DNA from: a virus
Strand: one strand, 5' to 3'
IMG/VR virus record: IMGVR_UViG_3300036770_005682
Span: 73,812 to 137,811 of that record
Length of the DNA: 64,000 nucleotides
The notes beneath the pieces were generated by a model that ran no database searches, was not told where the DNA came from, and worked only from the letters and a program-made list of their open reading frames with translations. The position numbers and the translations under genes are program-made. Of this stretch, positions 16,921 through 52,088 are shown piece by piece (within the stretch, counting starts at the first letter, position 1; every line of letters starts with the position of its first letter).

Positions 16921-16953
16921 AAAACAAAAGGGGCGCACCAGAAGGTACGCCCC
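16921..16953 (-). terminator. intrinsic terminator
   Basis: GGGGCGTACC/GGTGCGCCCC stem then TTTTGTTTT on the - strand. Confidence 0.7.
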
Positions 16954-16967
16954 CAAAGTTCAGGCTT

Positions 16968-17021
16968 TTATGATGTCGCCATCAAAGCGACTAACGCCAA
17001 AGTGACAACTACGGCAACCAT
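16968..17021 (-). CDS. 17-aa hydrophobic micropeptide MVAVVVTLALVALMATS
   Basis: Starts 1 nt after the stop of 17023..17217, GGGGGTGA SD, followed by a terminator. Confidence 0.55.
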   Translation of the reverse strand: MVAVVVTLALVALMATS

Positions 17022-17022
17022 C

Positions 17023-17217
17023 TCACCCCCCTATCTCGGCTGTTGGGTCAAAGTACGGGTCGGGTACTGTCGTATCCCACGGACACGGGTAGTGAAAGTA
17101 CTCGCAGTCGGGTACATCGCTCACGCCGAACTCCATTTTGGAACAAGCGAACGCTCCAAGACAGAGGCAGATGAACAACAAACCCCACCGCACGCACGAG
17201 CGTACGAAGTAGTACAT
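17023..17217 (-). CDS. small secreted/lipoprotein-like protein
   Basis: Hydrophobic N-terminus ending AFAC; AGAAAGGA SD; own promoter. Confidence 0.65.
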   Translation of the reverse strand: MYYFVRSCVRWGLLFICLCLGAFACSKMEFGVSDVPDCEYFHYPCPWDTTVPDPYFDPTAEIGG

Positions 17218-17249
17218 AACAGTCCTTTCTTAGGACTCCGCCCATCTGA

Positions 17250-17304
17250 AATGTACAGGTGACAAGAGCAAATGTCAAGGTTTTCGCCTGTGTTCTCCGT
17301 CACA
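17250..17304 (-). promoter_or_regulatory. sigma-A promoter with upstream CRP-like box
   Basis: TTGACA-17-TACATT (17278-17250); TGTGT-N6-TCACA at 17289-17304. Confidence 0.75.
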
Positions 17305-17790
17305 CGGCTCAAAGTCACCGAAAGCCGTCGGGCGACCTGCCGGAAGAACTCCAACTGACCGGCGATGCTGGCTCAACAGTCCCGTATAGCTCTTAGAGCT
17401 CTACGGGGCTAACGCGGCGGGAAGAAGGTTTCCTGCGGGAAGTTCCGCAACCTAACACGAAAAACTCAAAAGTCAAGTTTTTGGAACCTTGAAAATAAAG
17501 GATTTCAAGTTTTGGGTTTTTGAAAATAAAAAACAAGAAACTGAAAACTCGGTTTTGCCGTCGGCACGAGTGCCATCTGAGTCCCCGTGCGGCTGACCTC
17601 GGCAGCCCCGCCGCCAGCATCTCAAAAAGATTTGACGGTGGCGGAAGAGCGGGTTCGGGTCAGGGTTTTGTGCCAAACCTAGACGCTCAGAACGGCTCAG
17701 GCTGAAACGGGGTCACCGATACCGCAGAAGAGGACGAACTCCCGTGAGAGGGCGTGTGAGGGGGCTATCCGAGGCGTTTAGGGGCATGGC

Positions 17791-17821
17791 AAAGCCGACC
17801 CACCCAACTGGCAGGTCGGCT
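17791..17821 (-). terminator. intrinsic terminator
   Basis: AGCCGACC/GGTCGGCT stem followed by TT on the - strand. Confidence 0.55.
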
Positions 17822-17834
17822 CAACCGATAACTA

Positions 17835-17885
17835 CTAGACGAAGAACAGCGCAGTCAAGGCGATGACTACAACGATGGCGGTCAT
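17835..17885 (-). CDS. 16-aa hydrophobic micropeptide MTAIVVVIALTALFFV
   Basis: ATGA overlap with the stop of the upstream gene; followed by a terminator. Confidence 0.6.
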   Translation of the reverse strand: MTAIVVVIALTALFFV

Positions 17886-18154
17886 GCTTGGGGAATACCC
17901 AAAGCGGCGAGCGTTGGGTGCGTTGAGTGTGTTTCTCCCTGTGCGTCTACCCACACAACAACATCACGACGAGGTGGTTCTTGCCCGCATGGGTAAAAGG
18001 CTGCCTTGTGCCAACCCTTAGAGCCACAGTTGTCGCAGTAGCGTTCCCAGTCTTGCGGGTCGTCCCACCACGCATGAGTTGCGTAGTTCGCATCTGCTTC
18101 TTCTTGTGTCCCAGCGAAAGGGACTGGTTCGTTTATGAGTTGGATTACCTTCAT
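17882..18154 (-). CDS. hypothetical protein with CDNC motif, leaderless
   Basis: ATG is 7 nt downstream of a TACACT -10 element. Confidence 0.75.
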   Translation of the reverse strand: MKVIQLINEPVPFAGTQEEADANYATHAWWDDPQDWERYCDNCGSKGWHKAAFYPCGQEPPRRDVVVWVDAQGETHSTHPTLAALGIPQA

Positions 18155-18161
18155 GTTGTGA

Positions 18162-18190
18162 AGTGTACCTAGCACATCGCAGAAAGTCAA
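18162..18190 (-). promoter_or_regulatory. sigma-A promoter (leaderless)
   Basis: TTGACT-17-TACACT. Confidence 0.8.
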
Positions 18191-18364
18191 GCGATGTCGG
18201 AAGAAACTTTCGAGACCTTCCTGGACGCCTGGCTGATGAACCCGATAGTCCCGTATCCCCAAGATGGGTATACGGGGCTGATGGCACGGGAAGGAAAACT
18301 TCCGGAGTTGACTTTTCACGGGCGGCTTGTTAGGTTATGCGTTTTGGTGTTTTGAGGTTTTTCA

Positions 18365-18407
18365 CCACTTTTAGTGGTTTTTGAGCAAAGTTCGCCACGG
18401 AAAGTGG
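18365..18407. repeat. paired CCAC-N5-GTGG palindromes within A/T tracts (copy 1)
   Basis: CCACTTTTAGTGG at 18365 and CCACGGAAAGTGG at 18395, starts 30 bp apart. Confidence 0.75.
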
Positions 18408-18540
18408 CGATTCCGAGAAAAACAACAAAACAACAACGAAGTTCTCGCCCGCCGAACGTGCGCTGAGCCGACATCAACTGGGTCGTCTGCGGGGCTGATG
18501 ACCCAGTCACATTTACGACGGTGGCGGAAGACGGGCAACA

Positions 18541-18570
18541 AGAAAGCCCGCCCCCTTTCGGAGACGGGCT
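18541..18570 (-). terminator. intrinsic terminator
   Basis: AGCCCG...CCGAAAGG...CGGGCT then TTCT on the - strand. Confidence 0.65.
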
Positions 18571-18575
18571 CTTGG

Positions 18576-18626
18576 TCAAACTGCCAGCAGAAGAACAACT
18601 GCCAGCGTAATCACTAACGCTGTCAC
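18576..18626 (-). CDS. 16-aa hydrophobic micropeptide MTALVITLAVVLLLAV
   Basis: GTG 2 nt after the upstream stop, GAGGGG SD, followed by a terminator. Confidence 0.55.
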   Translation of the reverse strand: MTALVITLAVVLLLAV

Positions 18627-18628
18627 TC

Positions 18629-18826
18629 TTAGTTTGTGTCCCCCTCTTCGGGGGAAACGATGTAATCAACATCGCCCCAAACTATTTCGTGCTCTCGCAC
18701 TGCTTTTACTTTTCCCAATTCGTTGGTGATGAGGTCAAGGTATGCCTCCACCTTCGCTTCTGCTTCACTTTCTGACTTTGCGTCAAAAGTGTGAACCATC
18801 AGCGTGATGTTCGCTATGTATTTCAC
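18629..18826 (-). CDS. hypothetical protein, leaderless GTG start
   Basis: GTG 6 nt after a TACATT -10. Confidence 0.7.
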   Translation of the reverse strand: MKYIANITLMVHTFDAKSESEAEAKVEAYLDLITNELGKVKAVREHEIVWGDVDYIVSPEEGDTN

Positions 18827-18832
18827 AGGTGG

Positions 18833-18877
18833 AATGTACACCCTGTACAACACAACGTCAATGTGTTCTGCGTCACA
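18833..18877 (-). promoter_or_regulatory. sigma-A promoter with abutting CRP-like box
   Basis: TTGACG-17-TACATT; TGTGT-N6-TCACA at 18862-18877. Confidence 0.75.
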
Positions 18878-19088
18878 CCTACGTCCAGCCGATGACCTGT
18901 CGTTGCTGTGAGATGTCAGCCGCCGCAGCGATGACCAGCATCTCGTGGGCTGAGCCCCAGGTGGGCAAAAGCCCCGATGGGGTAATACCCCAGCACGGGG
19001 CTGCCAGGCGCAACCGGCCGGAAGGCCTCGATGGCCGGCCCTCCCCGAGTTATTCGAATAAGTTTTGGTCTTTGTCGAGCAAAAACGA

Positions 19089-19131
19089 CCACTTTTTGTG
19101 GTTTTTGGATAAATCCGACCACGGAAAGTGG
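19089..19131. repeat. paired CCAC-N5-GTGG palindromes within A/T tracts (copy 2)
   Basis: CCACTTTTTGTGG at 19089 and CCACGGAAAGTGG at 19119, starts 30 bp apart. Confidence 0.75.
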
Positions 19132-19286
19132 TTTTTCCTAAAACTAAAACGGAAAAGTCGAGCTCAGCTCCTCGAGCTCACGTAGCTTCGCCAGCTATGC
19201 GGGGTTGTGGGGCGGGGCTCACAACCCCGACGCATCTACTTTGACGGTGGCGGAAGACGGCTAGCGCACCTGAGCCGAGACAGCAA

Positions 19287-19325
19287 CAAGCCCGCCGTGC
19301 GGGGGGAAGGGGCACGGCGGGCTTG
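19287..19325 (-). terminator. terminator-like hairpin with C-rich loop
   Basis: CAAGCCCGCCGTGC/GCACGGCGGGCTTG stem; loop CCCTTCCCCCC on the - strand. Confidence 0.65.
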
Positions 19326-19344
19326 TGCGATTGGTGAGAATGGA

Positions 19345-19707
19345 CTACTTCCAGCAGGCAGCGGAATAGACGACTTCGCTCAGGTTGTCGCAATAGACAT
19401 CAAGCACTTCGTGCTCAACGACTAGCGTACCTTTCGCTTCGCCACGGTTCACGAGTCGGACACGGCGCACTTCGTACAGGTCTAGGTAGTTGAGTACCAC
19501 CTCAACCGCACGACTCTCTCCGCACAGCATTAGCAAGCCAATGGTCACGCCATCGCTAGCGTTCACCTTTGCCCACTTTCCACCGCACACAGCGAGAAAG
19601 GTCATCTTGCCCATTTGGGCTATGACCTCTTGCGGGTCGCAGTCACGACCTGAACGGTCAAGGTTGCGCAAGGCAATCAGAGACAGGTCGGTTTTCGTTG
19701 CTTTCAT
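19345..19707 (-). CDS. hypothetical protein
   Basis: GAAAGGGGG SD; 120 aa ending DVYCDNL.E.VY. Confidence 0.8.
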   Translation of the reverse strand: MKATKTDLSLIALRNLDRSGRDCDPQEVIAQMGKMTFLAVCGGKWAKVNASDGVTIGLLMLCGESRAVEVVLNYLDLYEVRRVRLVNRGEAKGTLVVEHEVLDVYCDNLSEVVYSAACWK

Positions 19708-19730
19708 TTCTTCACCCCCTTTCACCTTGC

Positions 19731-19775
19731 AGGGTACAAGTCGCAAGTGGGTAAGTCAATAGGACAAGTGTCACA
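19731..19775 (-). promoter_or_regulatory. sigma-A promoter with abutting CRP-like half-match
   Basis: TTGACT-17-TACCCT; TAGGA-N6-TCACA at 19760-19775. Confidence 0.7.
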
Positions 19776-19786
19776 CTCGCCAGCCA

Positions 19787-19834
19787 GCCCGCCCGCACGC
19801 CCGCCCGCACGCCCGCCCGCACGCCCGTACGCAC
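19787..19834 (+). repeat. 12-bp tandem repeat GCCCGCCCGCAC x3 plus one variant
   Basis: Read directly. Confidence 0.9.
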
Positions 19835-19925
19835 GCGCGCGTAAGAGTCCCGGACGGGATTTATTCCCGACGGGGCTCCCGCACGGGATTGACGGTGGTG
19901 GAAGAGTTCCGATGCGGGCACAAAC

Positions 19926-19955
19926 AAAATGCCCGCCCCCTTGCGGAGACGGGCA
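19926..19955 (-). terminator. intrinsic terminator
   Basis: TGCCCG...CGGGCA then TTTTG on the - strand; near copy of the 18541 hairpin. Confidence 0.65.
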
Positions 19956-19972
19956 GTTCGTTGGAGTTTCAG

Positions 19973-20329
19973 TTAGCGGTCTGGATTCGGCGTTGCCTTC
20001 ACCGTAAAAGTTCCGCTTGCATCGTGGTGGGCGAGGTGGCAAGTGAGCACTTTCGTTTCAGGGTCAAGCGAGTAACGCAATGACCATTCCGAACGGACAG
20101 TGATACTTTCCAACAACTTCATCGGAGTATCGGCGTGGAAAATGCCGTCTATCGTGCGTGCCCACAAAGGGAATCCTTCAATGCGCCACCAAGTGTCGCC
20201 TTCGTGAAGTTCCTTGTTGTGTTCAAGCATGACTTCGGCAGTCATGGCAAACAAGTCTGTCGCCATGTCCCACTCCCACTCTTCGGAAGTGTTGCTTACC
20301 TCTTCCCACTCCAAGTCGGAGTCAAGCAT
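19973..20329 (-). CDS. hypothetical protein
   Basis: GAAAGGGGGG SD; 118 aa with C-terminal HHD motif. Confidence 0.8.
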   Translation of the reverse strand: MLDSDLEWEEVSNTSEEWEWDMATDLFAMTAEVMLEHNKELHEGDTWWRIEGFPLWARTIDGIFHADTPMKLLESITVRSEWSLRYSLDPETKVLTCHLAHHDASGTFTVKATPNPDR

Positions 20330-20359
20330 GACTCCCCCCTTTCATGAGTTGAGAATGAC

Positions 20360-20414
20360 AGACTACCGACTTAGTAGCGATTAGTCAAGTAGGCATCGTG
20401 TGACATTAGGCACT
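20360..20414 (-). promoter_or_regulatory. sigma-A promoter with upstream CRP-like box
   Basis: TTGACT-17-TAGTCT; TGTGA-N6-GCACT at 20399-20414. Confidence 0.7.
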
Positions 20415-20654
20415 TCCGAGTAAGACGATAAGAATAAGGACTACAAAGATAGGCACTAATGACATGACAGCAACTTACCGCACCTGAGCCGAAAAAACAA
20501 CAACCCGATGTCGGCGATGTCGGGATGGGACGGGAGCCCCGGAGGCCCGCTGCCGGCCCACGGGGCTAACGGGTATCCGACGGTGGCGGAAGAAGGGCTC
20601 GCACTTCTCGTCGGGCTGACTTGGTCTGCTCAGTTTCAGTCGTGCTGTTTCGTG

Positions 20655-20731
20655 CGAACGCCTGTTCGGGTCGTGAGACGCTCTGCCCCTGTGTGTCTCA
20701 TGCGAACACCTGTTCGGCGAACATCTGTTCT
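20655..20731. promoter_or_regulatory. three LexA (SOS) boxes CGAAC-N4-GTTCG
   Basis: CGAACGCCTGTTCG 20655, CGAACACCTGTTCG 20703, CGAACATCTGTTCT 20718. Confidence 0.75.
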
Positions 20732-20774
20732 GTGACAAACGACACTTGCAATGTGTCCTTGACACCTGTACCCT
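20731..20774 (+). promoter_or_regulatory. sigma-A promoter with abutting CRP-like box
   Basis: TGTGA-N6-ACACT at 20731-20746; TTGCAA-17-TACCCT. Confidence 0.7.
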
Positions 20775-20908
20775 ACTAGGTGGGACAACCTGCCCGCCTA
20801 GCCTGTGGTGAAGCGACCTGCGTCACGGGGGGAACTAGAAAAGGTAGGGGGTGCGCCGTAGGGAAGGCGTACCTGTCCCACTCAACATAAGAACCGAGAA
20901 GGGGAACC

Positions 20909-21085
20909 ATGACACGCAAAGATTATGTCTTGCTTGCCAGTCATCTCCGCTACGCTCGTACGGGCGTTTCCGTCTCTCTGCTTGCAGGGTTTGACGAAGC
21001 CGTAGAAGCAATAGCGGACGCACTCGCAAGTGAGAACCACCGTTTTGACCGCGATAAGTTTTTGGAAGCGGTGAACCCGAACTAA
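20909..21085 (+). CDS. small phage protein (58 aa, MTRKDY...ENHRFDRDKFLEA)
   Basis: Read manually; GAAGGGG SD; resembles a common MTRKDY/N.RFD..KF small phage-protein pattern. Confidence 0.8.
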   Translation: MTRKDYVLLASHLRYARTGVSVSLLAGFDEAVEAIADALASENHRFDRDKFLEAVNPN

Positions 21086-21109
21086 ACATTCCCAACACCA
21101 CAGGCACAG

Positions 21110-21141
21110 AAAGCCCCATGCCGTTTGGCGTGGGGCTTTTT
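21110..21141 (+). terminator. intrinsic terminator
   Basis: AAAGCCCCATGCC-GTTT-GGCGTGGGGCTTTTT. Confidence 0.8.
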
Positions 21142-21322
21142 GTTTGCCCTCAACTCCCAGTCGGAACACCTCGCCAGATGGCTTTGATGGCATCTGGTAG
21201 CCCCGGAAGCCGTGCGGCAGCAACGGGGCTCCCACAGGAGTGCGACGGTGGTGGAAGTCCCCTGGTCTCCGCCTCTCCTCGCCTACCTCGCCCGCTGTCA
21301 TCATTCGTCTGTCTCAAACTGA

Positions 21323-21367
21323 TGTGACAAACGTCATGTTGTGATGTGTACCTGACAGGTGTAGTGT
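21323..21367 (+). promoter_or_regulatory. sigma-A promoter (leaderless) with abutting CRP-like box
   Basis: TGTGA-N6-TCATG at 21323-21338; TTGTGA-17-TAGTGT; ATG 7 nt later. Confidence 0.7.
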
Positions 21368-21374
21368 GCTATGT

Positions 21375-21962
21375 ATGGAAACAGCAACGAAGGAAGCCAT
21401 AGCACTACGGGTGCTTGCCGAATACTGGCAGACAGATGTAGCCCCAATGGTGAACCCACGAGCCTGTGTGCTTGCTGGACGCTTGGCGACTGTTGTGCTT
21501 GGTCGCATCGGCATTTCCACCGCCGTCTACCACACCGACACCGTTGCTATGAATGACCTGTGGTACAACCTGTTCATCGTCAAGGGGCTTGGTCAGCAGT
21601 TCCTTCCCCCTGAGGCATGGTGTGTTGGTGCTGTCACCGCAGATGTCAAGGGAACGCACAGCACGATGGTTGGCGGTTTCAGCGGTCACCTTGTTGTGAC
21701 AACCCCGCACCACTTTGTAGACCTGAGCGCAAGCCAGTTTGACCGTCCCTCACATGACATCGTGACTGGCTCGCCACTCATCGTCCCCCGTGAGAACATC
21801 ACAGACACGCCACATGGCAAGATGGTTCCGATACAGCGTGGTGTTTACATCACGAAGCCTGCCGAGAACCCTGCGTCATACCAATGGACACCCGACTGGC
21901 AGACCAACTACAAGACCTTTGCGAAGCCACTCATCACCCGCCTGCGGGAGATGTTCTCGTGA
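21375..21962 (+). CDS. hypothetical protein, possible Cys-His-Asp transglutaminase-like fold
   Basis: ACV.A...GHLVV....VDLSA.QF pattern. Confidence 0.7.
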   Translation: METATKEAIALRVLAEYWQTDVAPMVNPRACVLAGRLATVVLGRIGISTAVYHTDTVAMNDLWYNLFIVKGLGQQFLPPEAWCVGAVTADVKGTHSTMVGGFSGHLVVTTPHHFVDLSASQFDRPSHDIVTGSPLIVPRENITDTPHGKMVPIQRGVYITKPAENPASYQWTPDWQTNYKTFAKPLITRLREMFS

Positions 21963-22216
21963 CCGTACGAGACTGGTACGAGTTTGTGGAAACGGACTTG
22001 GAGAACTACGAGCGTGAGAAGTTTCGTGAGATGCTGTCCGACATCGGCTTTGATGACCTGTATGTGGAACGCACCGATGACCACGGCATTTGCTACTTGT
22101 GCGAGCGTGATGGAGTGTTGTACCTTGTAATGAACAGAGGACAACTGCGTGAGACAAATGCCTACTACCTTTGCTCTACCTGTACTAACGAGATGAAGCG
22201 AAAGACCGAAGAATGA
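21959..22216 (+). CDS. Zn-finger hypothetical protein
   Basis: GTGA overlap; CYLC...CSTC. Confidence 0.7.
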   Translation: MTVRDWYEFVETDLENYEREKFREMLSDIGFDDLYVERTDDHGICYLCERDGVLYLVMNRGQLRETNAYYLCSTCTNEMKRKTEE

Positions 22217-22371
22217 CCGGAATGTTGTATTCGCAGCGCAACGCACACTCATGCCCGTGGGGGTGCTGTGGCGATTTCGTCAAGGGTCGTGGAACGAAGC
22301 ACCGCTGTAAGAAGTGGCATCGCATCTTGCGTACCCGTGAGAAGCGCAACTGGAAGAAAGAGGAATGGTGA
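22213..22371 (+). CDS. small basic Cys-containing protein (52 aa)
   Basis: Read manually; ATGA overlap; CPWGCC, R.REKR.WKK. Confidence 0.65.
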   Translation: MTGMLYSQRNAHSCPWGCCGDFVKGRGTKHRCKKWHRILRTREKRNWKKEEW

Positions 22372-22838
22372 CTGCACCCGAATACGAAAGTTGGTGGGAC
22401 AGCGATGCTGGCAAGCCCGCCAGTCTCTGCGATGCCTGCGGGCAGAAGCAACTACTAACCCAACAGACATCGCCCGCCCTTCCTGATGGGGGCTGGATTA
22501 TGGAGTTTGAGCATTTCGGCTATTACGGCGGGTTCTCTGACGACATTGAGGTTGCGTTTGGCAAGCGAGACAGTAACTCATGGTCGCTTTGCCATGACTG
22601 CGTTGTGAAGTTCTTTGAGACATTCCCTGCGCTAGCGGAGAAGTTCGGTCGGGGGCACCACCCCAACTTCATTCACACAGACGACCTGCCGTACAGTGAG
22701 CGAGGCACATCTAGCCCGTCATGCTGTCGCTTTGCGTGGACATGGAATGTGACCGTTGAGAACGGAGAGAAGGTCTACGAGACTTTCTACGGAGATGGCA
22801 CAGGTGGCTGGGTTGCCCAGTCTAAGGAGCGAGTCTGA
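22365..22838 (+). CDS. Zn-binding hypothetical protein
   Basis: CDAC...GYYGGF.D...LCHDC. Confidence 0.75.
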   Translation: MVTAPEYESWWDSDAGKPASLCDACGQKQLLTQQTSPALPDGGWIMEFEHFGYYGGFSDDIEVAFGKRDSNSWSLCHDCVVKFFETFPALAEKFGRGHHPNFIHTDDLPYSERGTSSPSCCRFAWTWNVTVENGEKVYETFYGDGTGGWVAQSKERV

Positions 22839-22888
22839 TGGTTGTCAGCATCGTCGCCCTGATAGCCATCCTTCTGCTGTTGTCCTAG
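22838..22888 (+). CDS. 16-aa hydrophobic micropeptide MVVSIVALIAILLLLS
   Basis: TGATG overlap with the upstream stop, AAGGAG SD, last gene of the operon. Confidence 0.6.
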   Translation: MVVSIVALIAILLLLS

Positions 22889-23097: not shown

Positions 23098-23183
23098 TAT
23101 GGAAATAATACCGGCCGGGGCTCCCGAGCGCAACAGCATCTTCTTTGACGGTGGTGGAAGAAGCCCCTGAACGGGGACAGCAG

Positions 23184-23213
23184 AAAGCCCACACCCGTTT
23201 CCGAGTGTGGGCT
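23184..23213 (-). terminator. intrinsic terminator
   Basis: AGCCCACAC/GTGTGGGCT stem, TTCT on the - strand. Confidence 0.65.
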
Positions 23214-23236
23214 GACTGTTGGAAGCGAGTTGTGCG

Positions 23237-23692: not shown

Positions 23693-23722
23693 TTGTTCCC
23701 CTTTCGTAGTGGTGACAGTTAC

Positions 23723-25087: not shown

Positions 25088-25152
25088 TGCTGTGGTTTAT
25101 CGGTATGTCGGCACTCGCTAGTCTTATTTTGTACCTGCGCTTCTCTGACTAA
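25087..25152 (+). CDS. 21-aa hydrophobic micropeptide MLWFIGMSALASLILYLRFSD
   Basis: TAATG overlap, GAGG SD, last gene before hairpins. Confidence 0.55.
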   Translation: MLWFIGMSALASLILYLRFSD

Positions 25153-25200
25153 GTTCTCCAACAGGGGTAATCCGTCCCCCCTTTCACCTCTGTTGGACTG

Positions 25201-25244
25201 AAACCCCCAAGTCGTGTCTCACGCTGGCACGGCTTGGGGGTTTT
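25201..25244 (+). terminator. intrinsic terminator
   Basis: AAACCCCCAAG...CTTGGGGGTTTT. Confidence 0.75.
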
Positions 25245-25380
25245 CTCATGTCCGAACTTCGGTGGCCATCTACGGCCAGCATCACAGATGGTAAATACGA
25301 CCCGCCGGGGCTCCCGCCCGCCCGCCCGTCACTACTTTGACGGTGGCGGAAGAGCAGGGACACGAGAGTGGGTACACGAG

Positions 25381-25417
25381 AAAGGGGTCGCCCACCGCAT
25401 TTGGCAGGCGACCCCTT
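25381..25417 (-). terminator. intrinsic terminator
   Basis: AAGGGGTCGCC/GGCGACCCCTT stem. Confidence 0.65.
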
Positions 25418-25435
25418 AGCAGGGACGGTCAGTTG

Positions 25436-26011
25436 TCAGTTCTGCGAGTTCTGATAGGCGTGACACGCCTTCGTGAAGGCACGGAAGATGTCGGAGACAA
25501 CGCCGTGGAGTTCTCCATCAGCGATGTCAGGCTCGTCATACACAGGCAGTCCGTTGTCGTCATAGCGATAGAACACGGTCGCACCGATGGGTTCTCCGTC
25601 CCACGGATACACGCTGACGATGATGCCTTCACGAACATCGGTGGAAGGGTTCGTCTTGTATTCCTCTTCGTACGCACCACGGTCGTGATTTTCCAACTCT
25701 TCTTCGGTCACACTTCCAGCAGGCTTGGCGTAGCCTTCCACGATGTAGGCGAGCCACTTCCAGCGAACAGACTGAAAGTTGTCCACCATTCCTTCTGCGA
25801 GTCCTGACAACATCAACGGCAAGGTGTCGGTCGGGTGTCCTTCCATCAGGTCGGGCATAATGAAGCCGTCACCGCTCGGCAGTTCACCAACAAGGGTGGG
25901 CGGTGCGTCCGTTATCCCTTTGTTCTCTTCACAGATGCCGTACTTGGCTTCCATCGCACGGGCAACGACAGCCAACAGAATGTCTGTTGGCGTCATCTCT
26001 TCTTCTTCCAT
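25436..26011 (-). CDS. hypothetical protein
   Basis: 191 aa, AAGGGG SD, own promoter and terminator. Confidence 0.8.
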   Translation of the reverse strand: MEEEEMTPTDILLAVVARAMEAKYGICEENKGITDAPPTLVGELPSGDGFIMPDLMEGHPTDTLPLMLSGLAEGMVDNFQSVRWKWLAYIVEGYAKPAGSVTEEELENHDRGAYEEEYKTNPSTDVREGIIVSVYPWDGEPIGATVFYRYDDNGLPVYDEPDIADGELHGVVSDIFRAFTKACHAYQNSQN

Positions 26012-26046
26012 TTGGTTCCCCCTTATGGGTAGTAGGTACAGGTGTC

Positions 26047-26090
26047 AGTTTATGGTGTGTCCAACCTGTTGTCAAGTGCCATCGGTCACA
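26047..26090 (-). promoter_or_regulatory. sigma-A promoter with abutting CRP-like box
   Basis: TTGACA-17-TAAACT; AGTGC-N6-TCACA at 26075-26090. Confidence 0.75.
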
Positions 26091-26253
26091 CGCCTGAAAC
26101 TTGGAGTCAGTCCAAAGTTTGAGCAAGTCCAGCCCGCACCACGAGCCAGAAGGTCTGGCTGAGGGCAGAAGCCCCGCGCCCCGATGCTGCCGTCCGGGGC
26201 TCATCAGCCTGACGGTGGCGGAAGAAGCCCCTGCGCCCTGTACCCTGTACCGT

Positions 26254-26415
26254 ATGGGTCGGCGTAAGCACATCGCACAACCGAAATGGACGGCAGACGA
26301 GCGCACAGCGTTCGGTGATGGGGTGCGTACACGAGCAAGCACCGTGCCTGACAAGCGCAAGCGGGAGAGCAAGCGAGCCTGCCGACAGCCTGTGACGGAC
26401 GACACAGAGAAATAG
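26254..26415 (+). CDS. small basic protein
   Basis: TACCCT 7 nt before ATG; RA.TVPDKRK..SK.ACR. Confidence 0.6.
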   Translation: MGRRKHIAQPKWTADERTAFGDGVRTRASTVPDKRKRESKRACRQPVTDDTEK

Positions 26416-26484
26416 TTGCTTTTCGTGTGTGGGGTGTGTAGTGTTCCCCTTGTACCTGACACCCACAGCAGGAAGCGATAAGGG

Positions 26485-26539
26485 TGTGGCGAATGTCACA
26501 CAAGAACCTATTGACAAGTGCTTGTGTCCCCTGTAAGGT
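26485..26539 (+). promoter_or_regulatory. sigma-A promoter with upstream CRP-like box
   Basis: TGTGG-N6-TCACA at 26485-26500; TTGACA-17-TAAGGT. Confidence 0.75.
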
Positions 26540-26577
26540 ACACATTGTCCACAAGTCCCCAAACAAGAAAGAAGGAA

Positions 26578-27000
26578 ATGACCGTGGCACACTCAGTAGA
26601 GCAGGCAACCCGCCTGTACCTGTTGGCAAAGGAAGCCAGCGCACAAGCGGAAGCACAGAAGAAGGAAGCGGAACAGGCGTTGCGTGAGGCACTCGCCATC
26701 GCAGGCATCAGCGCAAGCGTGGTGGACGGCATCAAGGTCGCCATCGTGGAAGGCGAGCGCAAGTCCTACGACGCAGACAAGTTGGCGATGCTCGTGAAGC
26801 CCGCCACCTACAAGAAGGTCACCAAGCCCGTCGTGGACGGGGAGATGCTCGCAAGCGCAGTCAGCGTTGGCATCATCTCGCAGGAAGTGGCAGACACCAT
26901 CACAAAGGTCACCACCTACTCGCAGGTGCGTACCACCGCCGTCTCGCCCGATGCGAAGGCGAAGTCCCTGTCCGACAACGGCAAGGCGCAGGTCGCCTAG
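26578..27000 (+). CDS. coiled-coil protein (architecture reminiscent of Mu Gam/Gp157-like proteins)
   Basis: AAAGAAGG SD; N-terminal helix then KVTK.VVD...L segment; family is a guess. Confidence 0.7.
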   Translation: MTVAHSVEQATRLYLLAKEASAQAEAQKKEAEQALREALAIAGISASVVDGIKVAIVEGERKSYDADKLAMLVKPATYKKVTKPVVDGEMLASAVSVGIISQEVADTITKVTTYSQVRTTAVSPDAKAKSLSDNGKAQVA

Positions 27001-27141
27001 CACCCACAAGTCTCGTGTGGGGTGGGAGACACCGCAGATGCTCGCCCACCCCACACAAGAAAGTGGCTACGCAGGTTGTGACTATCAACCGAAGTGGCTA
27101 CACTCCACAACACCAACAACTCCCACGAAAGGGGAACCCCA

Positions 27142-27882
27142 ATGACAAGTGTGGCAGACACACAAGAGACACTTCCCGCCTGTTGGCAGGAAGTCCACGA
27201 TGCGCTGGAAGCGGGCATTGACCGCCTTATCCTGTTCGGCGTTCCAGGAACAGGCAAGACCTACGCAGGTCTGAACTACGGCAACACCGATGCGGGTGCG
27301 TTCCGTCTCATCTGTACCGATGACATGACCAACGCCGATGTGACAGGGTGCTGGCAACCCAATGACCACGGCTCGTGGTCGTGGCTGGAAGGCTCGGCTA
27401 TCCGTGCGTGGAAAGGCGATGGCACAGTCGGTGGTCGTCTCGTCATTGACGAGATAGACAAGGCTGGTGGCGATGTGTTCGCTACCCTGCTTGCGATGAC
27501 CGACAGCCCTGAGAGCGCAAAGTGGGAACACCCGCACACCCGCAAGGTGTTGCGCCCCAACGCAGGTTTCAGCGTGGTGATGACCACCAACATTGAGCAG
27601 ATGAGCGACCTGCCGATGGCACTCAAAGACCGTTTCCCCGTGTGCGTCCGTATCAACGAACCGCACCCGTCAGCACTCGCCCGTCTGAGCGAGGACTTGC
27701 GTGACTACGCCCGTCAGATGGCAGACGCAGGCGAACGCCGTATCTCTCTCCGTGCGTTCTACGCCTTTGACCAACTGCGTACCGCACTCGGCACGAAGCG
27801 GGCGGCGCAGATGGTGTTCCGTGACCGTGCTAAGAGCGTGGTGGACGCTATCGCCATCAACACCATGACCCCGCAGAAGTAG
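27142..27882 (+). CDS. MoxR/CbbQ-type AAA+ ATPase
   Basis: GVPGTGKT Walker A, LVIDEID Walker B, MTTN sensor, ALKDRF. Confidence 0.9.
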   Translation: MTSVADTQETLPACWQEVHDALEAGIDRLILFGVPGTGKTYAGLNYGNTDAGAFRLICTDDMTNADVTGCWQPNDHGSWSWLEGSAIRAWKGDGTVGGRLVIDEIDKAGGDVFATLLAMTDSPESAKWEHPHTRKVLRPNAGFSVVMTTNIEQMSDLPMALKDRFPVCVRINEPHPSALARLSEDLRDYARQMADAGERRISLRAFYAFDQLRTALGTKRAAQMVFRDRAKSVVDAIAINTMTPQK

Positions 27883-27887
27883 GGGTC

Positions 27888-29420
27888 ATGTCCAAGAGCA
27901 ACGAAACGCCTGTTGAGGCGACCATCAAGAAAGGCGCAACGCCACAGTATCCCGAACCTGAGATGCTGTCTCGTGGTGACCTGACTGCCACAACCGACAA
28001 CAAGCGTTGGAACATCGTGAATGTCCAACCTGTGCGTGGCGAGCCAATGACGGAAGTGACGCACCGTGAGATGCGTGTGCCGATGTACGACACCGAACAC
28101 TCACGCCACATACGGGCGCACGAGATGACCCACGCCAAAGTCTCGCCAACTGCGAAGCAGTTTGAGAAGTGGGTCGCTCGTGGCTACGCCAAGCCCGCAA
28201 CGCTCGTGCGCTGTGAGGAACTGCGTGTGAATGTGCTGTGCGCCCGTGCGGGCTTTGAGCCGATGACGCACCTGACGGACGGAAGCGAGTATCTCGCAGG
28301 CAAGCGCACAGCAGAGGCGAGCGACTTTCAGAGTGCCGTGCTGGACGCTATCTCGTTCCGTGGCACGGCAGGATACGCACCGTACTTGGAAGGGGTGAAG
28401 CAGGTGAAGCCGATGTGGGCAGACCTGCTGGAAGCCATCTCCAAGACGGGCGAGGACTACTTCACGAGCGTCACCGACAACCCACGCTCGCAACCGCAAC
28501 TGTGGGACACCCACAGCCGTCTCCACTTGTCAGGCTTTGGCTATGTGGAGAACTACGCCAAGTGGGTAGAAGAACAGGTGGGTGCGCTGTGCGACAACCC
28601 GACAGGCGAGCCACAACCACAGCCCGCAGGCAAGGAAGGCGAGGGCAAGGAAGGCGAGGGCAAGCAACCTGACAAGTCACCTGCCGAAGCAACTGCCAAC
28701 GCAGGTGAACGCCTGACGCAAGACCGGTGGGGTCGTGGCAGTATCCCGAAGCGTGGTCGTGCGACCTTGTGGGAAGAACTGCGTGTCGCCACGCCTGCGT
28801 TGGAACGGAATGTGATGGGTGCTATCGGGCGCAAGCGTGTGGCATCGCAGACAGGGCGCAACCCACGCCGTCTGTCTCGTATGCTCACCGACCCTGAGAA
28901 GCGCATCTTTGACCGCACCGTGAAAGGCGCAGGTGGCGTGGTACTCATTGACACAAGCGGGTCAATGTCGCTAGACCACGATGAAGTGATGGCGATGGTA
29001 CTGAACGCACCGTCAGCACTCGTGGCGCAGTATTCGGGTGGCAAGCCATCACGCCCCAACCTGTATGTGGTCGCCAACAAGGGCAAGTGTGTGAACCAAC
29101 TCCCGACACCGAATGGTGGGAACGGAATGGACGCACCCGCCTTGCGTTGGGCTATCTCCAAGCGTCAGCGCAACACCGCACCTATCATTTGGGTCACAGA
29201 TGGTGGGGTCACGGGCAAGGGCGATGGCTGGTACGAGGACTTGGCGATGGAATGTATCAACCTTGTGAAGCGTCACGGCATCTACACCGCCGAAACGCCT
29301 GAGCAGGCTATTGAGATGTTGCGGGCGATGTCAAAGGGCGAGAAGGTCAAGAGCATTGTGCCATCGCACCTGTCAGCCGTCTATCAGTCCATCACGGGTC
29401 ACGAACTGACCTTCCGCTAG
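27888..29420 (+). CDS. vWA-domain partner of the AAA ATPase, with N-terminal HExxH
   Basis: RAHEMTH; DTSGSM MIDAS, GGNG.D, VTDG. Confidence 0.85.
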   Translation: MSKSNETPVEATIKKGATPQYPEPEMLSRGDLTATTDNKRWNIVNVQPVRGEPMTEVTHREMRVPMYDTEHSRHIRAHEMTHAKVSPTAKQFEKWVARGYAKPATLVRCEELRVNVLCARAGFEPMTHLTDGSEYLAGKRTAEASDFQSAVLDAISFRGTAGYAPYLEGVKQVKPMWADLLEAISKTGEDYFTSVTDNPRSQPQLWDTHSRLHLSGFGYVENYAKWVEEQVGALCDNPTGEPQPQPAGKEGEGKEGEGKQPDKSPAEATANAGERLTQDRWGRGSIPKRGRATLWEELRVATPALERNVMGAIGRKRVASQTGRNPRRLSRMLTDPEKRIFDRTVKGAGGVVLIDTSGSMSLDHDEVMAMVLNAPSALVAQYSGGKPSRPNLYVVANKGKCVNQLPTPNGGNGMDAPALRWAISKRQRNTAPIIWVTDGGVTGKGDGWYEDLAMECINLVKRHGIYTAETPEQAIEMLRAMSKGEKVKSIVPSHLSAVYQSITGHELTFR

Positions 29421-29534
29421 ACCGCACAGGCGGACTGTTCCCCCACCCACAGGGACAGCCCGCCCAAGCGTGGCGGGCGGGTGGCACTTCCCCCTTTCAG
29501 TCACCCGCCCGCCTGAACACGAAAGAGAACGCAG

Positions 29535-29696
29535 ATGAAGTGGAACACCACAGCAGTCATGGGTCACATTGTTGAGACTGTGACCACCGAAGCAGACGAC
29601 ATTGACACCGCAACGGAGATGGCATACGACCTGCTGGAAGGCAAGGGCTATGACCTGTCAGCCTTTGACGAAGTGACAACGGAGAGCGAGCGATGA
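29535..29696 (+). CDS. small acidic protein (53 aa)
   Basis: Read manually (MKWNTTAVMGH...); ATGA overlap with the next gene. Confidence 0.65.
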   Translation: MKWNTTAVMGHIVETVTTEADDIDTATEMAYDLLEGKGYDLSAFDEVTTESER

Positions 29697-29953
29697 GCAA
29701 GTACCGTGTTCAGGTCATGGTCGGCGTAGATGTCTCAGCCGACACAGATGGCGAGGCGATGGTGAACGCCGTTGCGAAGGTGCGTGGCATTATCGGGGAG
29801 AACCCGACAGAGCCAATGCCGAAGGAAGCGTGGGTGACGGGCATCGCACTTGCCGACCCCGCACATTGGCATCACACGAGCGTTGAGGGGTACATGGTAT
29901 TCCGACAGCCCGACCGAGCCGAGGACAACTCTTTGACGGTGGCGGAAGACTAG
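29693..29953 (+). CDS. hypothetical protein; its 3' end encodes a motif copy (..SLTVAED)
   Basis: 86-aa ORF. Confidence 0.7.
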   Translation: MSKYRVQVMVGVDVSADTDGEAMVNAVAKVRGIIGENPTEPMPKEAWVTGIALADPAHWHHTSVEGYMVFRQPDRAEDNSLTVAED

Positions 29954-30177
29954 TCGCTGAACACTTTTTTGTCGTAGATGCGTAGGGCATTTACGGCAAG
30001 GCTGGTCACGGCGCACTTCCAGTAAGGTGCGTTCCAGTCTGTGATGTCAGACGAACGCAAGAACCACAGCACAACCCACAGCACTCCGCCGTAAATAGAA
30101 CCCGCAAGTCCAGCCCCTGCTAGCGTAACTAAGAACGCTGGTTTGGGGCTGTTTGTTATCTCAGGGTGTTTAGGCAT
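29950..30177 (-). CDS. small membrane protein
   Basis: MPKHPE start; FLVTLAGAGLAGSIYGGVLWVVLW transmembrane segment. Confidence 0.6.
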   Translation of the reverse strand: MPKHPEITNSPKPAFLVTLAGAGLAGSIYGGVLWVVLWFLRSSDITDWNAPYWKCAVTSLAVNALRIYDKKVFSD

Positions 30178-30544
30178 TGACGGTCTTGCCCAAGCGGTTG
30201 ATGATTTGGTGAACGCGCTGGCGCGACAACCCGTACTCATCACCGATGCTTTGGAGCGACCTGCCATTTTGACGGGCAACGAGCATGGCGTTGTCCCTGT
30301 CGGGATTACCTGATGGGCCGGGCTTACATGGCCCCCATGCCCACCCTGCGAACTTCTCCAACTGTGCGATGCGCTCAGGAGACAGAGTGCCTGCCCGATA
30401 CTTGATACGCACATAGGTCACCCATGACCCAAGTGAAACTGTCTCTCCGTCCACCGAACACTTGTACGAGGTCGGTACAAGGGCTGTTCCGTGTTCTGAA
30501 ACGTAGGTGGATAGTGCTTGAATGTTTTTGTCCCATCGGCTCAT
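30170..30544 (-). CDS. helicase-associated (HA) domain plus sigma70-region-4-like HTH
   Basis: W......L..Y...HG...VP..Y......LG.WV...R......L...RI..L; SLQSIG..YGLSRQRVHQI; leaderless after TAATGT. Confidence 0.8.
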   Translation of the reverse strand: MSRWDKNIQALSTYVSEHGTALVPTSYKCSVDGETVSLGSWVTYVRIKYRAGTLSPERIAQLEKFAGWAWGPCKPGPSGNPDRDNAMLVARQNGRSLQSIGDEYGLSRQRVHQIINRLGKTVNA

Positions 30545-30682
30545 AGTCTTGACATTACTCGACCGGCCACCGGCTGCGGCGGAACCGGCTTGACAGCCCC
30601 GCGATGCGGCCGCCAGCTTCCGGGGCCCCTGATGACGGTGGTGGAAGACAGGGCCGGCCCTCGAGAAAGTTTTCGCCACGTG

Positions 30683-30711
30683 TTGCATTTGTCAGTTGTA
30701 CTGGGTAGTGT
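30683..30711 (+). promoter_or_regulatory. sigma-A promoter
   Basis: TTGCAT-17-TAGTGT. Confidence 0.65.
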
Positions 30712-30743
30712 GACGGCACCACTTCACAAGGAAGGAGAAGGAA

Positions 30744-30953
30744 ATGGAAACCTATGACAAAGAAGCAGTAGAGAAACTGCAACCAGAGAAAGCACGGGGG
30801 GAAGTGGGAGTGCTCTCAATGGAAGGACTAGATGTCGGCGTCAAAATCGCAGACGTTCGTGTCCGCTTCGGTCATATTGATTACCTAGTCAAGCCACTCA
30901 ACGGCAAGGGCGAGGTATGGGTGGAGCGCCACCGTGTCAAAGTGATGGCGTGA
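30744..30953 (+). CDS. small beta-rich hypothetical protein
   Basis: AAGGAG SD; D.R.RFG..DY.V.P..G.GE.WV. Confidence 0.75.
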   Translation: METYDKEAVEKLQPEKARGEVGVLSMEGLDVGVKIADVRVRFGHIDYLVKPLNGKGEVWVERHRVKVMA

Positions 30954-30992
30954 CAAACGTCACTTGACAAACTGGCTTGTGGGGTGTAGCGT
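30949..30992 (+). promoter_or_regulatory. sigma-A promoter with abutting CRP-like box
   Basis: CGTGA-N6-TCACT at 30949-30964; TTGACA-17-TAGCGT. Confidence 0.75.
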
Positions 30993-31033
30993 GTACCCCA
31001 CAAGTCACTACTTATCTATTAGCAAGGGGAACA

Positions 31034-52086: not shown

Positions 52087-52088
52087 GC

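Follow-up and report, generated by a model that had tools for sequence, protein, structure and literature searches.

Does a short word that recurs between the small genes of a phage regulate them, or is it the joint at which they are exchanged? The question is raised by a locus in the complete 137,811-bp (~138-kb) genome of an uncultured actinophage, of which a stretch of 64,000 nucleotides was analysed (the window; positions below are those of the window). The phage looks lytic, and the locus probably represents its early and DNA-metabolism region. The original prediction was an integron-like array of interchangeable, self-contained cassettes with the word as their junction.

Relatives that bear the motif have genomes of 130–170 kb and belong to a large, uncultured actinophage family of freshwater and subsurface metagenomes. 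Neither megablast of 16000–37000 nor tblastn of a 510-aa protein detected a cultured relative among 50,697 phage records; the capsid protein alone matches distant actinophages, at 47–49% identity. The motif was absent in either orientation from the 8.1 million PMC papers and 0.36 million bioRxiv texts searched, and a search of titles and abstracts for conserved intergenic repeats in actinophages returned nothing relevant. No known RNA family was detected at E ≤ 0.1 within 16000–37500. The tRNAs of the genome sit outside this region.

A one-way motif at gene junctions

The motif, (TT)GACGGTGGYGGAAGA, is 15–17 nt long and occurs in 16 copies, all on the + strand (Table 1). Because the array spans 17634–35176, it reaches past 31000, where the region first described ended. 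The window matches GACGGTGGYGGAAGA 18 times at two or fewer mismatches, always on the + strand, while 0.24 were expected and the maximum among 100 shuffles was 2. The whole genome contains 16 forward and no reverse copies at one or fewer mismatches. In 28 related whole records the dominant strand carries 174 copies and the opposite strand 2, and a reversed-pattern control gave 0. Mixed strands were found in none of the 55 contigs with at least two exact copies (173 copies).

The motif core is asymmetric and non-palindromic, and it is unchanged across genomes whose proteins share just 30–45% identity. Copies are restricted to a 10–25-kb stretch of these genomes and nearly all lie at gene junctions. 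Their polarity is independent of gene direction, as eight minus-strand genes lie between + copies. Copy 11 is retained inside coding sequence, between convergent units with zero intergenic space.

Most copies in the clade of this phage have a hairpin bearing CGGGGCT 10–27 nt upstream. The 60 nt upstream of the motif have a mean folding energy of −19.5 in the window, compared with −16.8 after shuffling; the corresponding values in the related record L208 are −19.0 and −13.8. Several long stems differ in sequence yet pair, and some copies have no hairpin. Distant relatives that retain the motif have no hairpin beside it. Placement of the motif within a GGGGCT...AGCCCC loop, seen by eye at a few copies, is not general; GGGGCT lies upstream in 35/150 foreign copies.

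Table 1. Motif copies and the predicted transcription units that they delimit.
Feature	Position	Strand	Description
Motif copy 1	17634..17648	+	Exact
Motif copy 2	18517..18531	+	Exact; hairpin upstream with GCGGGGCT in loop
Motif copy 3	19243..19257	+	Exact; hairpin upstream with GCGGGGCT in loop
Motif copy 4	19891..19905	+	Exact, T variant
Motif copy 5	20579..20593	+	Exact; AGCCCCG...CGGGGCT stem upstream
Motif copy 6	21244..21258	+	1 mismatch
Motif copy 7	23147..23161	+	Exact; L205 and L206 join its left flank to copy-9 right flank
Motif copy 8	23898..23912	+	Exact
Motif copy 9	25339..25353	+	Exact; run X5 contig joint departs at last base
Motif copy 10	26211..26225	+	Exact
Motif copy 11	29935..29949	+	Exact; within final codons of gene 29693-29953
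Motif copy 12	30634..30648	+	Exact; divergent promoter region, f21 gene / unit L
Motif copy 13	32904..32918	+	1 mismatch, TACGG variant
Motif copy 14	33779..33793	+	1 mismatch; directly 5' of conserved gene f29
Motif copy 15	34446..34460	+	1 mismatch; starts 380-nt non-coding stretch before replication-initiator-like gene
Motif copy 16	35162..35176	+	1 mismatch, GGAGG variant; in 3' end of gene 34839-35180
Possible degenerate copy	36169..36183	+	2 mismatches; strand switch before WhiB gene
Unit A	17649..18516	-	Gene 17882-18154/18319; promoter-like site 18190-18162
Unit B	18532..19242	-	Terminator 18539-18574, gene 18629-18799/18853, promoter 18861-18833
Unit C	19258..19890	-	Terminator 19283-19328, gene 19345-19707, promoter 19759-19731
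Unit D	19906..20578	-	Terminator 19923-19962, gene 19973-20329, promoter 20388-20360
Unit E	20594..21243	+	Promoter-like site 20746-20774, gene 20909-21085 (deleted in close relatives), terminator 21103-21148
Unit F	21259..23146	+	Genes 21375-21962, 21959-22216, 22365-22838
Unit G	23162..23897	-	Terminator 23178-23221, gene 23237-23692 (family f10), promoter 23751-23723
Unit H	23913..25338	+	Promoter 23986-24013; genes 24046-24630, 24627-24848 (DUF4314), 24833-25087; terminator 25200-25244
Unit I	25354..26210	-	Terminator 25382-25417, gene 25436-26011 (family f14), promoter 26075-26047
Unit J	26226..29953	+	Genes 26584-27000, 27142-27882 (AAA_5 ATPase), 27888-29420, 29535-29696, 29693-29953
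Unit K	29950..30633	-	Genes 29950-30177, 30170-30544 (family f21: HA domain + sigma-70 region-4-like HTH)
Unit L	30649..32903	+	Six small genes, 30744 to 32497
Units M, N, O	32919..35841	+	Genes 33205-33513; 33808-34293 (DUF1599-like); 34839-35180 (replication-initiator-like), 35177-35647 (helicase-loader-like), 35662-35841

Self-contained units between the copies

The intervals between motif copies form ~15 transcription units, some on each strand. ORFs with a positive coding score in a codon-usage gene caller were found between copies on both strands, and the minus-strand ORFs are considered real genes because they are conserved full-length as proteins in relatives (40–87% identity). A promoter-like site of sigma-A type (TTGAC[ATG]-like −35 box, 16–17-nt spacer, TANNNT) lies upstream of the first gene in 12/15 units, at ~30 to 380 nt from the motif. 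A generic scan found 13 promoter-like sites where 7.9 ± 2.9 were expected. Six minus-strand units were folded. Five of them (B, C, D, G and I) have a hairpin followed by a U-tract (z −2.8 to −8.2) that begins 8–30 nt past the motif, in keeping with the predicted position of minus-strand terminators within ~30 bp of it. The hairpin of unit A falls short of significance (z −0.7). On the plus strand, strong terminators are predicted for units E and H (z −7.6 and −6.8). The terminators near 18541 and 19926, said to be near copies, are indeed 80% identical across 41 nt. The picture of self-contained units on both strands, many with a terminator, was thus borne out.

Most unit proteins have no informative family; the 191-aa protein of unit I, looked up in the Atlas, matched hypothetical clusters only. 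The suggestion that the cargo serves host takeover or anti-defence was not supported.

Rearrangement of units among relatives

Gene content and order vary between relatives. Alignment revealed insertion, deletion and reordering of whole inter-motif units, as had been proposed. The four closest relatives have entire units in permuted order, and their hybrid junctions change over at the motif. In a comparison with 4 close relatives, 21/40 motif junctions are broken compared with 1/41 motif-less junctions, though these counts include shared events more than once, so their p-values are inflated. At 4508 in L205 the left flank of copy 7 (80%) is followed by the right flank of copy 9 (76%), and the joint at 7610 in the same record is its reciprocal, with flanks of 73% and 75%. 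The left flank of copy 6 meets the right flank of copy 8 at 6190 in L206 and at 6200 in L208. An assembly artefact was rejected as the source of the permutations, as L204, L205 and L209 are separate records with one order, L207 and L208 share another, and contigs of three other runs bridge the window's own order. One DNA run (X5) contains a contig joint from 25353 to 23174 at a depth of 3.6 compared with ~16, which could just as well stem from a co-occurring variant in H-G order.

Fifteen of 156 block ends are no more than 8 nt away from the corresponding motif edge. When motifs were redrawn within intergenic DNA the mean was 3.2 and the maximum 11 (2000 redraws). Units begin sharply at the first base of the motif in several comparisons. 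With a 30-nt limit, 16 of the block ends are near a motif, 42 near a gene edge and 99 near neither. Gene order is collinear among relatives at 90–95% identity, whose differences fall at gene edges rather than at the motif. More distant comparisons show no preference for the motif: 32/59 motif junctions and 19/42 motif-less junctions are broken between the window and 12 distant loci (p = 0.42), and 12/42 and 19/81, respectively, in a second comparison (p = 0.66). Gene families occur in both orientations relative to the motif, according to lineage. The motif therefore acts as a clean joint several times in the close clade, as predicted, but it is neither the sole junction nor the preferred one family-wide.

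These results bear on whether the motif is purely regulatory, that is, an operator, a stoperator-like polar roadblock or a promoter element. Shuffling would then be incidental, with rearrangements surviving only at the boundaries of independent transcription units. The breaks of close relatives at gene edges, the 42/156 block ends near gene edges and the lack of excess breaks at the motif in distant genomes agree with such a role. The reciprocal hybrid junctions argue against it, as do block ends 0–8 nt from a motif edge, which are five times commoner than in the redrawn-motif null, and a motif orientation that, unlike that of stoperators, is independent of transcription.

Recombination enzymes

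No integrase or recombinase had been visible in the window, and this extends to the complete genome: neither the tyrosine recombinase family PF00589 (E ≤ 0.01; 14/14 control genomes match) nor the serine recombinase family PF00239 (controls positive) has a match in the 137,811 bp. Among 126 different ORFs scanned with Pfam there is no HUH or transposase family. The phage encodes a Rad52_Rad22 protein (E = 2.2e-12) and an SSB (E = 8.4e-27).

Integron cassettes are mostly promoterless and co-oriented behind a common promoter, with an IntI-type tyrosine recombinase adjoining the array, and attC sites are imperfect palindromes that fold as hairpins. The array resembles an integron, or an attC cluster without an integrase, in that small gene units are separated by a repeated, co-oriented site and differ in content and order between relatives. 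Unlike an integron, it has no IntI-type recombinase and no common promoter, its site is asymmetric and not attC-like, and its cassettes run in both directions with their own promoters and terminators. The integron-like designation was consequently abandoned.

An unrecognised recombinase or DNA-cutting protein could still act on the polar motif, perhaps with the hairpin and motif as folded single-stranded DNA, and excise and insert circles of motif plus cargo in one orientation. Such a dedicated site-specific system would account for the strict polarity (174 vs 2 copies), the core that stays invariant while proteins diverge, the sharp unit starts, the reciprocal joints and the hairpins that vary in sequence but keep pairing. 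The phage also has many proteins of unknown function, some of them giant and without any family: one of 2459 aa matches nothing in Pfam or the PDB. We consider a site-specific system unlikely, as none of the recombinase and transposase families was found, distant relatives retain the motif without the hairpin, the family as a whole shows no excess of breakpoints at the motif, and the motif is tied to promoters and particular conserved genes.

Regulatory association and a candidate reader

The link to promoters was seen among 150 distinct motif copies from other contigs, where TANNNT follows TTGACG at a spacer of 17 or 18 (26% + 8% of copies, background 1.2%). Outside the close clade 17/105 copies appear to act as a −35 box, compared with 4/73 inside it, and an extended −10 box follows the motif in 14/105 (background 2%). 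In distant relatives the motif stands at the head of co-directional operons, shares sequence with a sigma-A-type −35 box or lies just upstream of another promoter type. TANNNT was found 15–19 nt past a TTGACG-like hexamer in 0/16 copies of this phage. Since the promoter distance is also variable, a direct promoter role is unlikely here, and a regulatory role is deduced from the relatives. A ribosome-binding role was rejected because it fits copy 16 alone, which is also the putative ribosome-binding site of gene 35177-35647.

Particular genes adjoin the motif. It is immediately left of f41 in 15/15 loci, of f29 in 14/17 and of f22 in 6/6, and immediately right of f85 in 9/10. The fixed positions before f41, f29 and f22 lie in stretches that never rearrange and, together with the promoters of relatives, they favour a purely regulatory motif. 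Weighed against the joints described above, that role alone is rather unlikely.

The position at f41, which is initiator-like, suggests yet another function. A polar DNA-processing signal apart from transcription, such as a Chi-like nuclease-modulating hotspot, a pause site for replication forks or DNA entry, or dispersed iterons of the neighbouring replication-initiator-like protein, could explain why one copy or a pair lies just before this gene in 15/15 loci, why another copy lies within the 3' end of the initiator-like gene, and why strand polarity is independent of gene direction. Chi-type words are genome-wide, unlike these copies, which are confined to 10–25 kb and nearly all at gene junctions; iterons normally cluster within a few hundred bases; and the motif is associated with promoters in relatives. 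We regard such a signal as very improbable.

Invariance of the motif across the family points to a sequence-specific reader. The f21 protein (30170-30544) is a candidate, judged from its sequence and position. Its helix LSRQRVHQI is near-invariant while overall identity is 35–82%, it matches Pfam Sigma70_r4 above the cut-off (26.4 bits), and its gene is antisense to the motif in 11/11 loci tested. The f21 model has no PDB match at E ≤ 0.001, with local sigma-A domain-4-like matches only, and phmmer against PDB found nothing under E = 0.79. A phage RNA polymerase was rejected as the reader, as no polymerase family was seen among the proteins examined, which included the 2459-aa protein and a polyvalent one of 3462 aa that carries NUDIX, HTH, DnaJ and Zeta-kinase domains.

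Discussion

We favour the explanation, at a probability of roughly 0.55, that the motif is a conserved protein-binding boundary or regulatory site that doubles as a short-homology crossover point, with a Rad52-type annealing protein probably involved. The early region would be an array of self-contained transcription units, each between two strand-invariant words. A conserved sequence-specific protein would bind the motif and mark or insulate unit boundaries as its primary role. The hybrid joints show the secondary role: the copies, as direct repeats, recombine with one another and so move whole inter-motif segments. A segment excised as a circle and re-entering at another copy would leave reciprocal hybrid junctions and convert the order G-H to H-G. 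The phage Rad52-family protein and SSB may carry this out with no integrase. A second layer of exchange swaps coding sequences alone inside constant terminator and promoter flanks; the coding part of unit B is replaced by another in close relatives.

Two further observations count against this combined role. Perfect identity between copies extends ~18–26 nt, which is short for homologous recombination, and recombination between direct repeats cannot invert gene families relative to the motif.

The shuffling is much like that of the promoter-early stem-loops (PeSLs) of T4-type phages rather than that of an integron. PeSLs, as described in the cited sections, are strong sigma-70-type promoters fused to a terminator and pointing in the same direction as the genes (Arbiol et al. 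2010, PMC2839356; Comeau et al. 2014, PMC4122927). Both systems have a short repeated regulatory element with a stem-loop (here the hairpin of the close clade) between small genes of mostly unknown function, in a plastic part of a large lytic phage genome, and insertions, deletions, replacements and reorderings join at the repeats (here in the close clade and not in distant relatives). Recombination between direct copies is expected to yield circles, for which the counterpart here is a single low-depth contig joint. Unlike a PeSL as so described, the word is not a complete promoter (0/16 with a −10 box) and the unit promoters are separate, 30–380 nt away; the units run both ways but the word keeps its orientation; a whole phage family shares the invariant core, which is tied to specific conserved genes; and the host is an actinobacterium.

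Stoperators of Cluster A mycobacteriophages such as L5 and TipsytheTRex are also asymmetric sites, 13–15 bp long and present in >15 copies per actinophage genome (PMC9283540). Some overlap promoters and others lie in short intergenic spaces, a parallel that favours a purely regulatory motif. They are read by the immunity repressor, which is a monomer and has two DNA-binding domains (HTH and stoperator domain); f21 likewise has two small domains. According to the same account these phages are temperate and stoperator orientation follows transcription on both genome arms. The motif ignores transcription and remains on the + strand throughout, though units A–D, G, I and K are minus-strand; co-oriented distant relatives approximately match orientation with transcription. 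Neither an integrase nor an immunity repressor was seen here, and the cited portion of that account describes no role for stoperators as shuffling joints.

A dedicated protein, f21 or another unknown one, could both insulate the units and direct excision and re-insertion of circles of motif plus cargo. The array would then be an integron-like platform of lytic actinophages without a tyrosine recombinase, with self-expressed cassettes in either direction and a site of one polarity. We think this improbable.

With these results, modular shuffling at repeats, as known from T4-type phages with Gram-negative hosts, extends to an uncultured family of 130–170-kb actinophages. Its form is unusual, as the one-way joint word is decoupled from gene direction and from the unit promoters and is invariant across the family. 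Gain, loss and permutation within the array, a defined set of small early genes with independent expression, can be followed in metagenomes. The reader of the motif, if identified, would provide a simple way to test how phages keep accessory genes exchangeable while leaving regulation intact.

Motif-delimited expression units

The 15-nt motif GACGGTGGYGGAAGA, mostly with TT in front, has 18 matches at ≤2 mismatches between window positions 17634 and 36962 (expected 0.24), all on the + strand. Allowing ≤1 mismatch, 16 forward and no reverse copies occur genome-wide, all within window 17634–35176 and numbered here from left to right. ORFs between motif copies are coding on both strands, as called by a gene caller trained on the long ORFs of this genome, and the minus-strand ORFs are kept as full-length proteins in relatives at 40–87% identity. 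12/15 units between successive copies (units A–O) possess their own promoter-like site 5' of the first gene, consisting of a TTGAC[ATG]-like -35 box, a 16–17 nt spacer and TANNNT. Minus-strand terminators had been placed near the motif, and 5/6 minus-strand units that were folded have a significant hairpin with a U-tract 8–30 nt from it; the unit A hairpin is not significant. The terminators of units B and D, described as near copies, are 80% identical, and strong terminators also occur in the plus-strand units E and H. Copy 11 is retained within a gene's final codons, at a point where two convergent units meet end to end. The original description of motif-delimited units with a promoter, short genes and terminators was correct; the array continues approximately 4 kb past its end point of 31000.

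In the close clade (the window and related loci L205, L206, L208 and G020), a CGGGGCT-bearing hairpin lies 10–27 nt upstream of many motif copies. CGGGGCT is found either in the loop of a long stem, which varies in sequence among copies but keeps its pairing, or in the 3' arm of an AGCCCCG...CGGGGCT stem. Folding upstream of the motif exceeds that of shuffled sequences in the close clade and in the related record G024, and is no stronger than shuffles in six distant genomes.

Several repeats were also observed around the units. Directly ahead of copy 1, a 0.8 kb stretch with weak coding signal (16812–17633) contains the A/T-rich direct repeats ..TTTTGGAACCTTGAAAATAAAGG.. and ..TTTTGGGTTTTTGAAAATAAAA.. 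GC-rich tandem repeats are found upstream of unit C (19778–19850; 12-nt unit CGCCCGCCCGCA, about five times) and directly after copy 8 (23913–23950; GTGTGCGCCTGC-type). Genes A and B are each preceded by a 63-nt element (18364–18426 and 19088–19150) that holds two small palindromes (ACCACT..AGTGGT and GCCAC..GTGGC), and AGTCCAAASTTTGA repeats (23775–23808 and 26109–26125) lie upstream of the G and I promoters. These upstream elements, common to A/B and to G/I, are possible operator or activator sites.

Polarity of the motif across the phage family

The viral collection contains the exact 17-mer in at least 195 stretches. Among the matches listed, counted by record, 101 contigs contain 219 exact copies; 55 of these contigs have two or more (173 copies) and none has them on mixed strands. 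In 28 whole records searched at ≤1 mismatch, the dominant strand carries 174 copies and the opposite strand 2, both of the latter being 1-mismatch matches distant from the motif cluster. A reversed-pattern control gave 0 matches in the 28 records. The copies are confined to approximately 10–25 kb in each large record. Among 150 distinct copies, the set left after removal of duplicates and of copies too near a locus end, conservation is limited to the motif core and the flanks vary. Across the phage family the motif is a strictly polar signal.

The G024 locus (L215+L216) holds two motif sub-variants in one genome. Minus-strand operons have six GACGGTGGCGGAAGA copies at 3–5 nt from their stop codons, and five AACGGTGGTGGAAGA copies precede plus-strand operons.

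The same gene families occur on either strand relative to the motif, which itself is never flipped. Family f10 is on the minus strand in the window, G020, L208 and G024 and on the plus strand in G012, G013, G014, G005 and G018; f14 lies on the minus strand in close-clade loci and on the plus strand in G001, G012, G013, G014, G009 and G021. Families f15 in G024 and f11 and f12 in G018 are minus, as is f21 in 11/11 loci examined. Because exchange between direct repeats cannot invert a unit, unit inversions need another route, which might be, for example, placement in a minus-strand slot already equipped for expression, or exchange between palindromic hairpins.

Exchange of whole units in the close clade

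Nineteen loci oriented by the motif were compared: the window, L205, L206, L208 and regions from 15 of the 28 records. L204, L209 and L207 were excluded because they nearly duplicate L205 and L208. Genes came from our own caller and families from blastp; because the caller was trained on the window phage, lone opposite-strand genes that it reports in distant genomes may be erroneous. Within the close clade the units switch direction alternately and their order is permuted (Table).

Table. Unit order and hybrid motif junctions in close-clade genomes. Flanks are named by the window motif copy that they resemble, with identity where available.
Genome	Unit order	Junction position	Left flank	Right flank
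Window	C D E F G H I J
L205	C F' I D H G J	4508	copy 7 (80%)	copy 9 (76%)
L205		5386	copy 10	copy 4
L205		7610	reciprocal of 4508 (73%, 75%)
L206	D C F' I E H G J	4623	copy 7	copy 9
L206		6190	copy 6	copy 8
L208	C F' I D E H G J	6200	copy 6	copy 8

Counting only families single-copy in both genomes compared, 21/40 close-clade junctions with the motif are broken vs 1/41 without it (Fisher p = 1.5e-7, which overstates independence because the four comparisons have events in common). The motif is present at 34/45 strand-switch junctions and 31/102 same-strand junctions in this clade. Non-collinear blastn block ends were also enumerated (blocks ≥150 nt, ends ≤200 nt from a locus end dropped). Of 156 ends, 16 are ≤30 nt from a motif, 42 are ≤30 nt from a gene edge and 99 are near neither. 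The ends at motifs are sharply placed: fifteen lie ≤8 nt from the matching motif edge, against a null mean of 3.2 and maximum of 11 when motif positions were redrawn 2000 times within intergenic DNA.

Comparison of 150-nt flanks (background identity 57–65%) revealed motif copies that combine the left flank of one window copy with the right flank of another (Table). Since the reciprocal joints and the permutation of G-H to H-G match the expected product, we infer that the segment between copies 7 and 9 could have been excised as a circle and re-entered through copy 8. One contig joint from sequencing run X5 departs from the window sequence at the final base of copy 9 (25353) and picks it up again at 23174, at a depth of 3.6 vs approximately 16. 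It is the same joint between copies 7 and 9, and may be a circle or a co-occurring variant.

Exchange at gene edges and in distant relatives

The proposal that units are reordered at motif boundaries held in the close clade but is not supported by distant loci. Between the window and 12 distant loci, 32/59 motif junctions and 19/42 motif-less junctions are broken (p = 0.42); with G012 as reference the counts are 12/42 and 19/81 (p = 0.66). In distant loci single genes relocate among multi-gene operons.

Relatives at 90–95% identity in sequencing runs X5, X7 and X12 are collinear over 16690–36227, and their differences fall at gene edges. Unit B has its coding part replaced (18630–18833), gene E is deleted (20894–21077), and one change begins 8 nt past copy 5. 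Terminator and promoter flanks are repeated among units (repeat families D5, D8, D9 and D15). The differences at gene edges, together with the presence of the window's upstream region of E before H in L205, show two layers of exchange. One moves whole inter-motif units; the other replaces coding sequences within terminator and promoter flanks that stay constant.

The motif beside promoters and fixed genes

TANNNT lies 17 or 18 nt past TTGACG in 26% and 8% of the 150 copies, respectively, vs 1.2% in background, and at promoter spacing in 0/16 window copies. Outside the close clade the motif acts as a -35 box in 17/105 copies and is followed by an extended -10 box in 14/105 (background 2%); within the clade the values are 4/73 and 2/73.

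Promoter-type copies mostly form a conserved pair 305–385 nt apart around a conserved non-coding stretch, which may be a small RNA or a replication origin. This stretch directly precedes a replication-initiator-like gene in many relatives, and in L012, L013, L028, L070 and L151 it contains C-runs (..GGTTCCCCC..ACCCCC..TCCAAAG..). The window counterpart (34461–34838) has one motif copy, after which come 380 non-coding nt containing inverted repeats and runs of G/C.

In co-oriented distant relatives a second conserved element, which includes a TGGTA-type extended -10 box, lies 5–20 nt past many copies. A second conserved word, GGTAGATAAGTCTG or GTAAGTCTGTCC and then TGGTACAGT, is found downstream of many motif copies in the distant relatives G001, G012, G013, G014, G005 and G024. 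It is probably a distinct promoter class of the phage family.

Certain gene families keep the motif as a neighbor. It is directly left of f41, which is replication-initiator-like, in 15/15 loci, of f29 in 14/17, and of f22 and f6 in 6/6 each. It is directly right of f85 in 9/10 loci and of f91 in 6/6.

Enzymes, a candidate reader and the host group

Neither PF00589 nor PF00239 matches anywhere in the genome, and positive controls matched, consistent with the observation that no integrase or recombinase is visible in the window. Pfam scans (36 + 54 + 5 + 33 entries, two ORFs scanned twice, thus 126 different ORFs) revealed no transposase or HUH enzyme. They did show Rad52_Rad22, SSB and a staphylococcal-type nuclease. 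The f21 protein (124 aa) contains an HA domain and a Sigma70_r4 match (26.4 bits), with a helix that is near-invariant in 15 members sharing 35–82% identity. A comparison of its structural model (pLDDT 81) with PDB gave no significant match; locally, sigma-A domain 4 and Mu Mor/C-type activators scored best. The f21 protein is only a candidate for the reader of the motif.

The source record is 137,811 bp with direct terminal repeats, is rated 100% complete, and contributes bases 73812–137811 as the window. The phage encodes a terminase, portal, prohead protease, capsid, baseplate protein, ribonucleotide reductase, SNF2 helicase, SSB, a Rad52/22-family annealing protein and two WhiB proteins. 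The capsid protein is 47–49% identical to counterparts in Brevibacterium and Gordonia phages, and neither the DNA nor one protein of the region matched cultured phages. These findings identify it as an uncultured actinophage.

The head-gene module, which lies beyond the window, encodes a 3462-aa protein (genome 50408–60796; L230:409–10797) with NUDIX, HTH, DnaJ and Zeta-toxin-type kinase domains; it is a polyvalent protein that may be delivered together with the DNA. The adjoining proteins (2459, 1713 and 1264 aa) are nearly devoid of recognizable domains. Window regions 48165–53870 and 12432–13583 hold metabolic genes that are unusual in a phage. A cluster of them codes for two 2OG-Fe(II) oxygenases, an APS-kinase-like protein and a member of the tryptophan-halogenase family (E = 2.4e-100), and a PAPS-reductase-like protein is encoded apart from this cluster, still within the window.

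Comparison with known systems

The observation of motif-delimited units was confirmed and its interpretation partly supported. The integron-like array was rejected, as it fails on three defining features. Stoperators (PMC9283540) are likewise asymmetric multi-copy sites in promoters and gaps, but their link with transcription direction has no counterpart in the motif. Among known systems, PeSLs of T4-type phages come closest (PMC2839356, PMC4122927). The shuffling logic is common to T4-type phages and the window phage (PMC2839356). Unlike PeSL, the window repeat is not itself a promoter, shows no dependence on gene direction and is invariant family-wide. The promoter association, the fixed gene neighbors and the retention of copy 11 within codons argue for a sequence-specific function of the motif that would not depend on shuffling.
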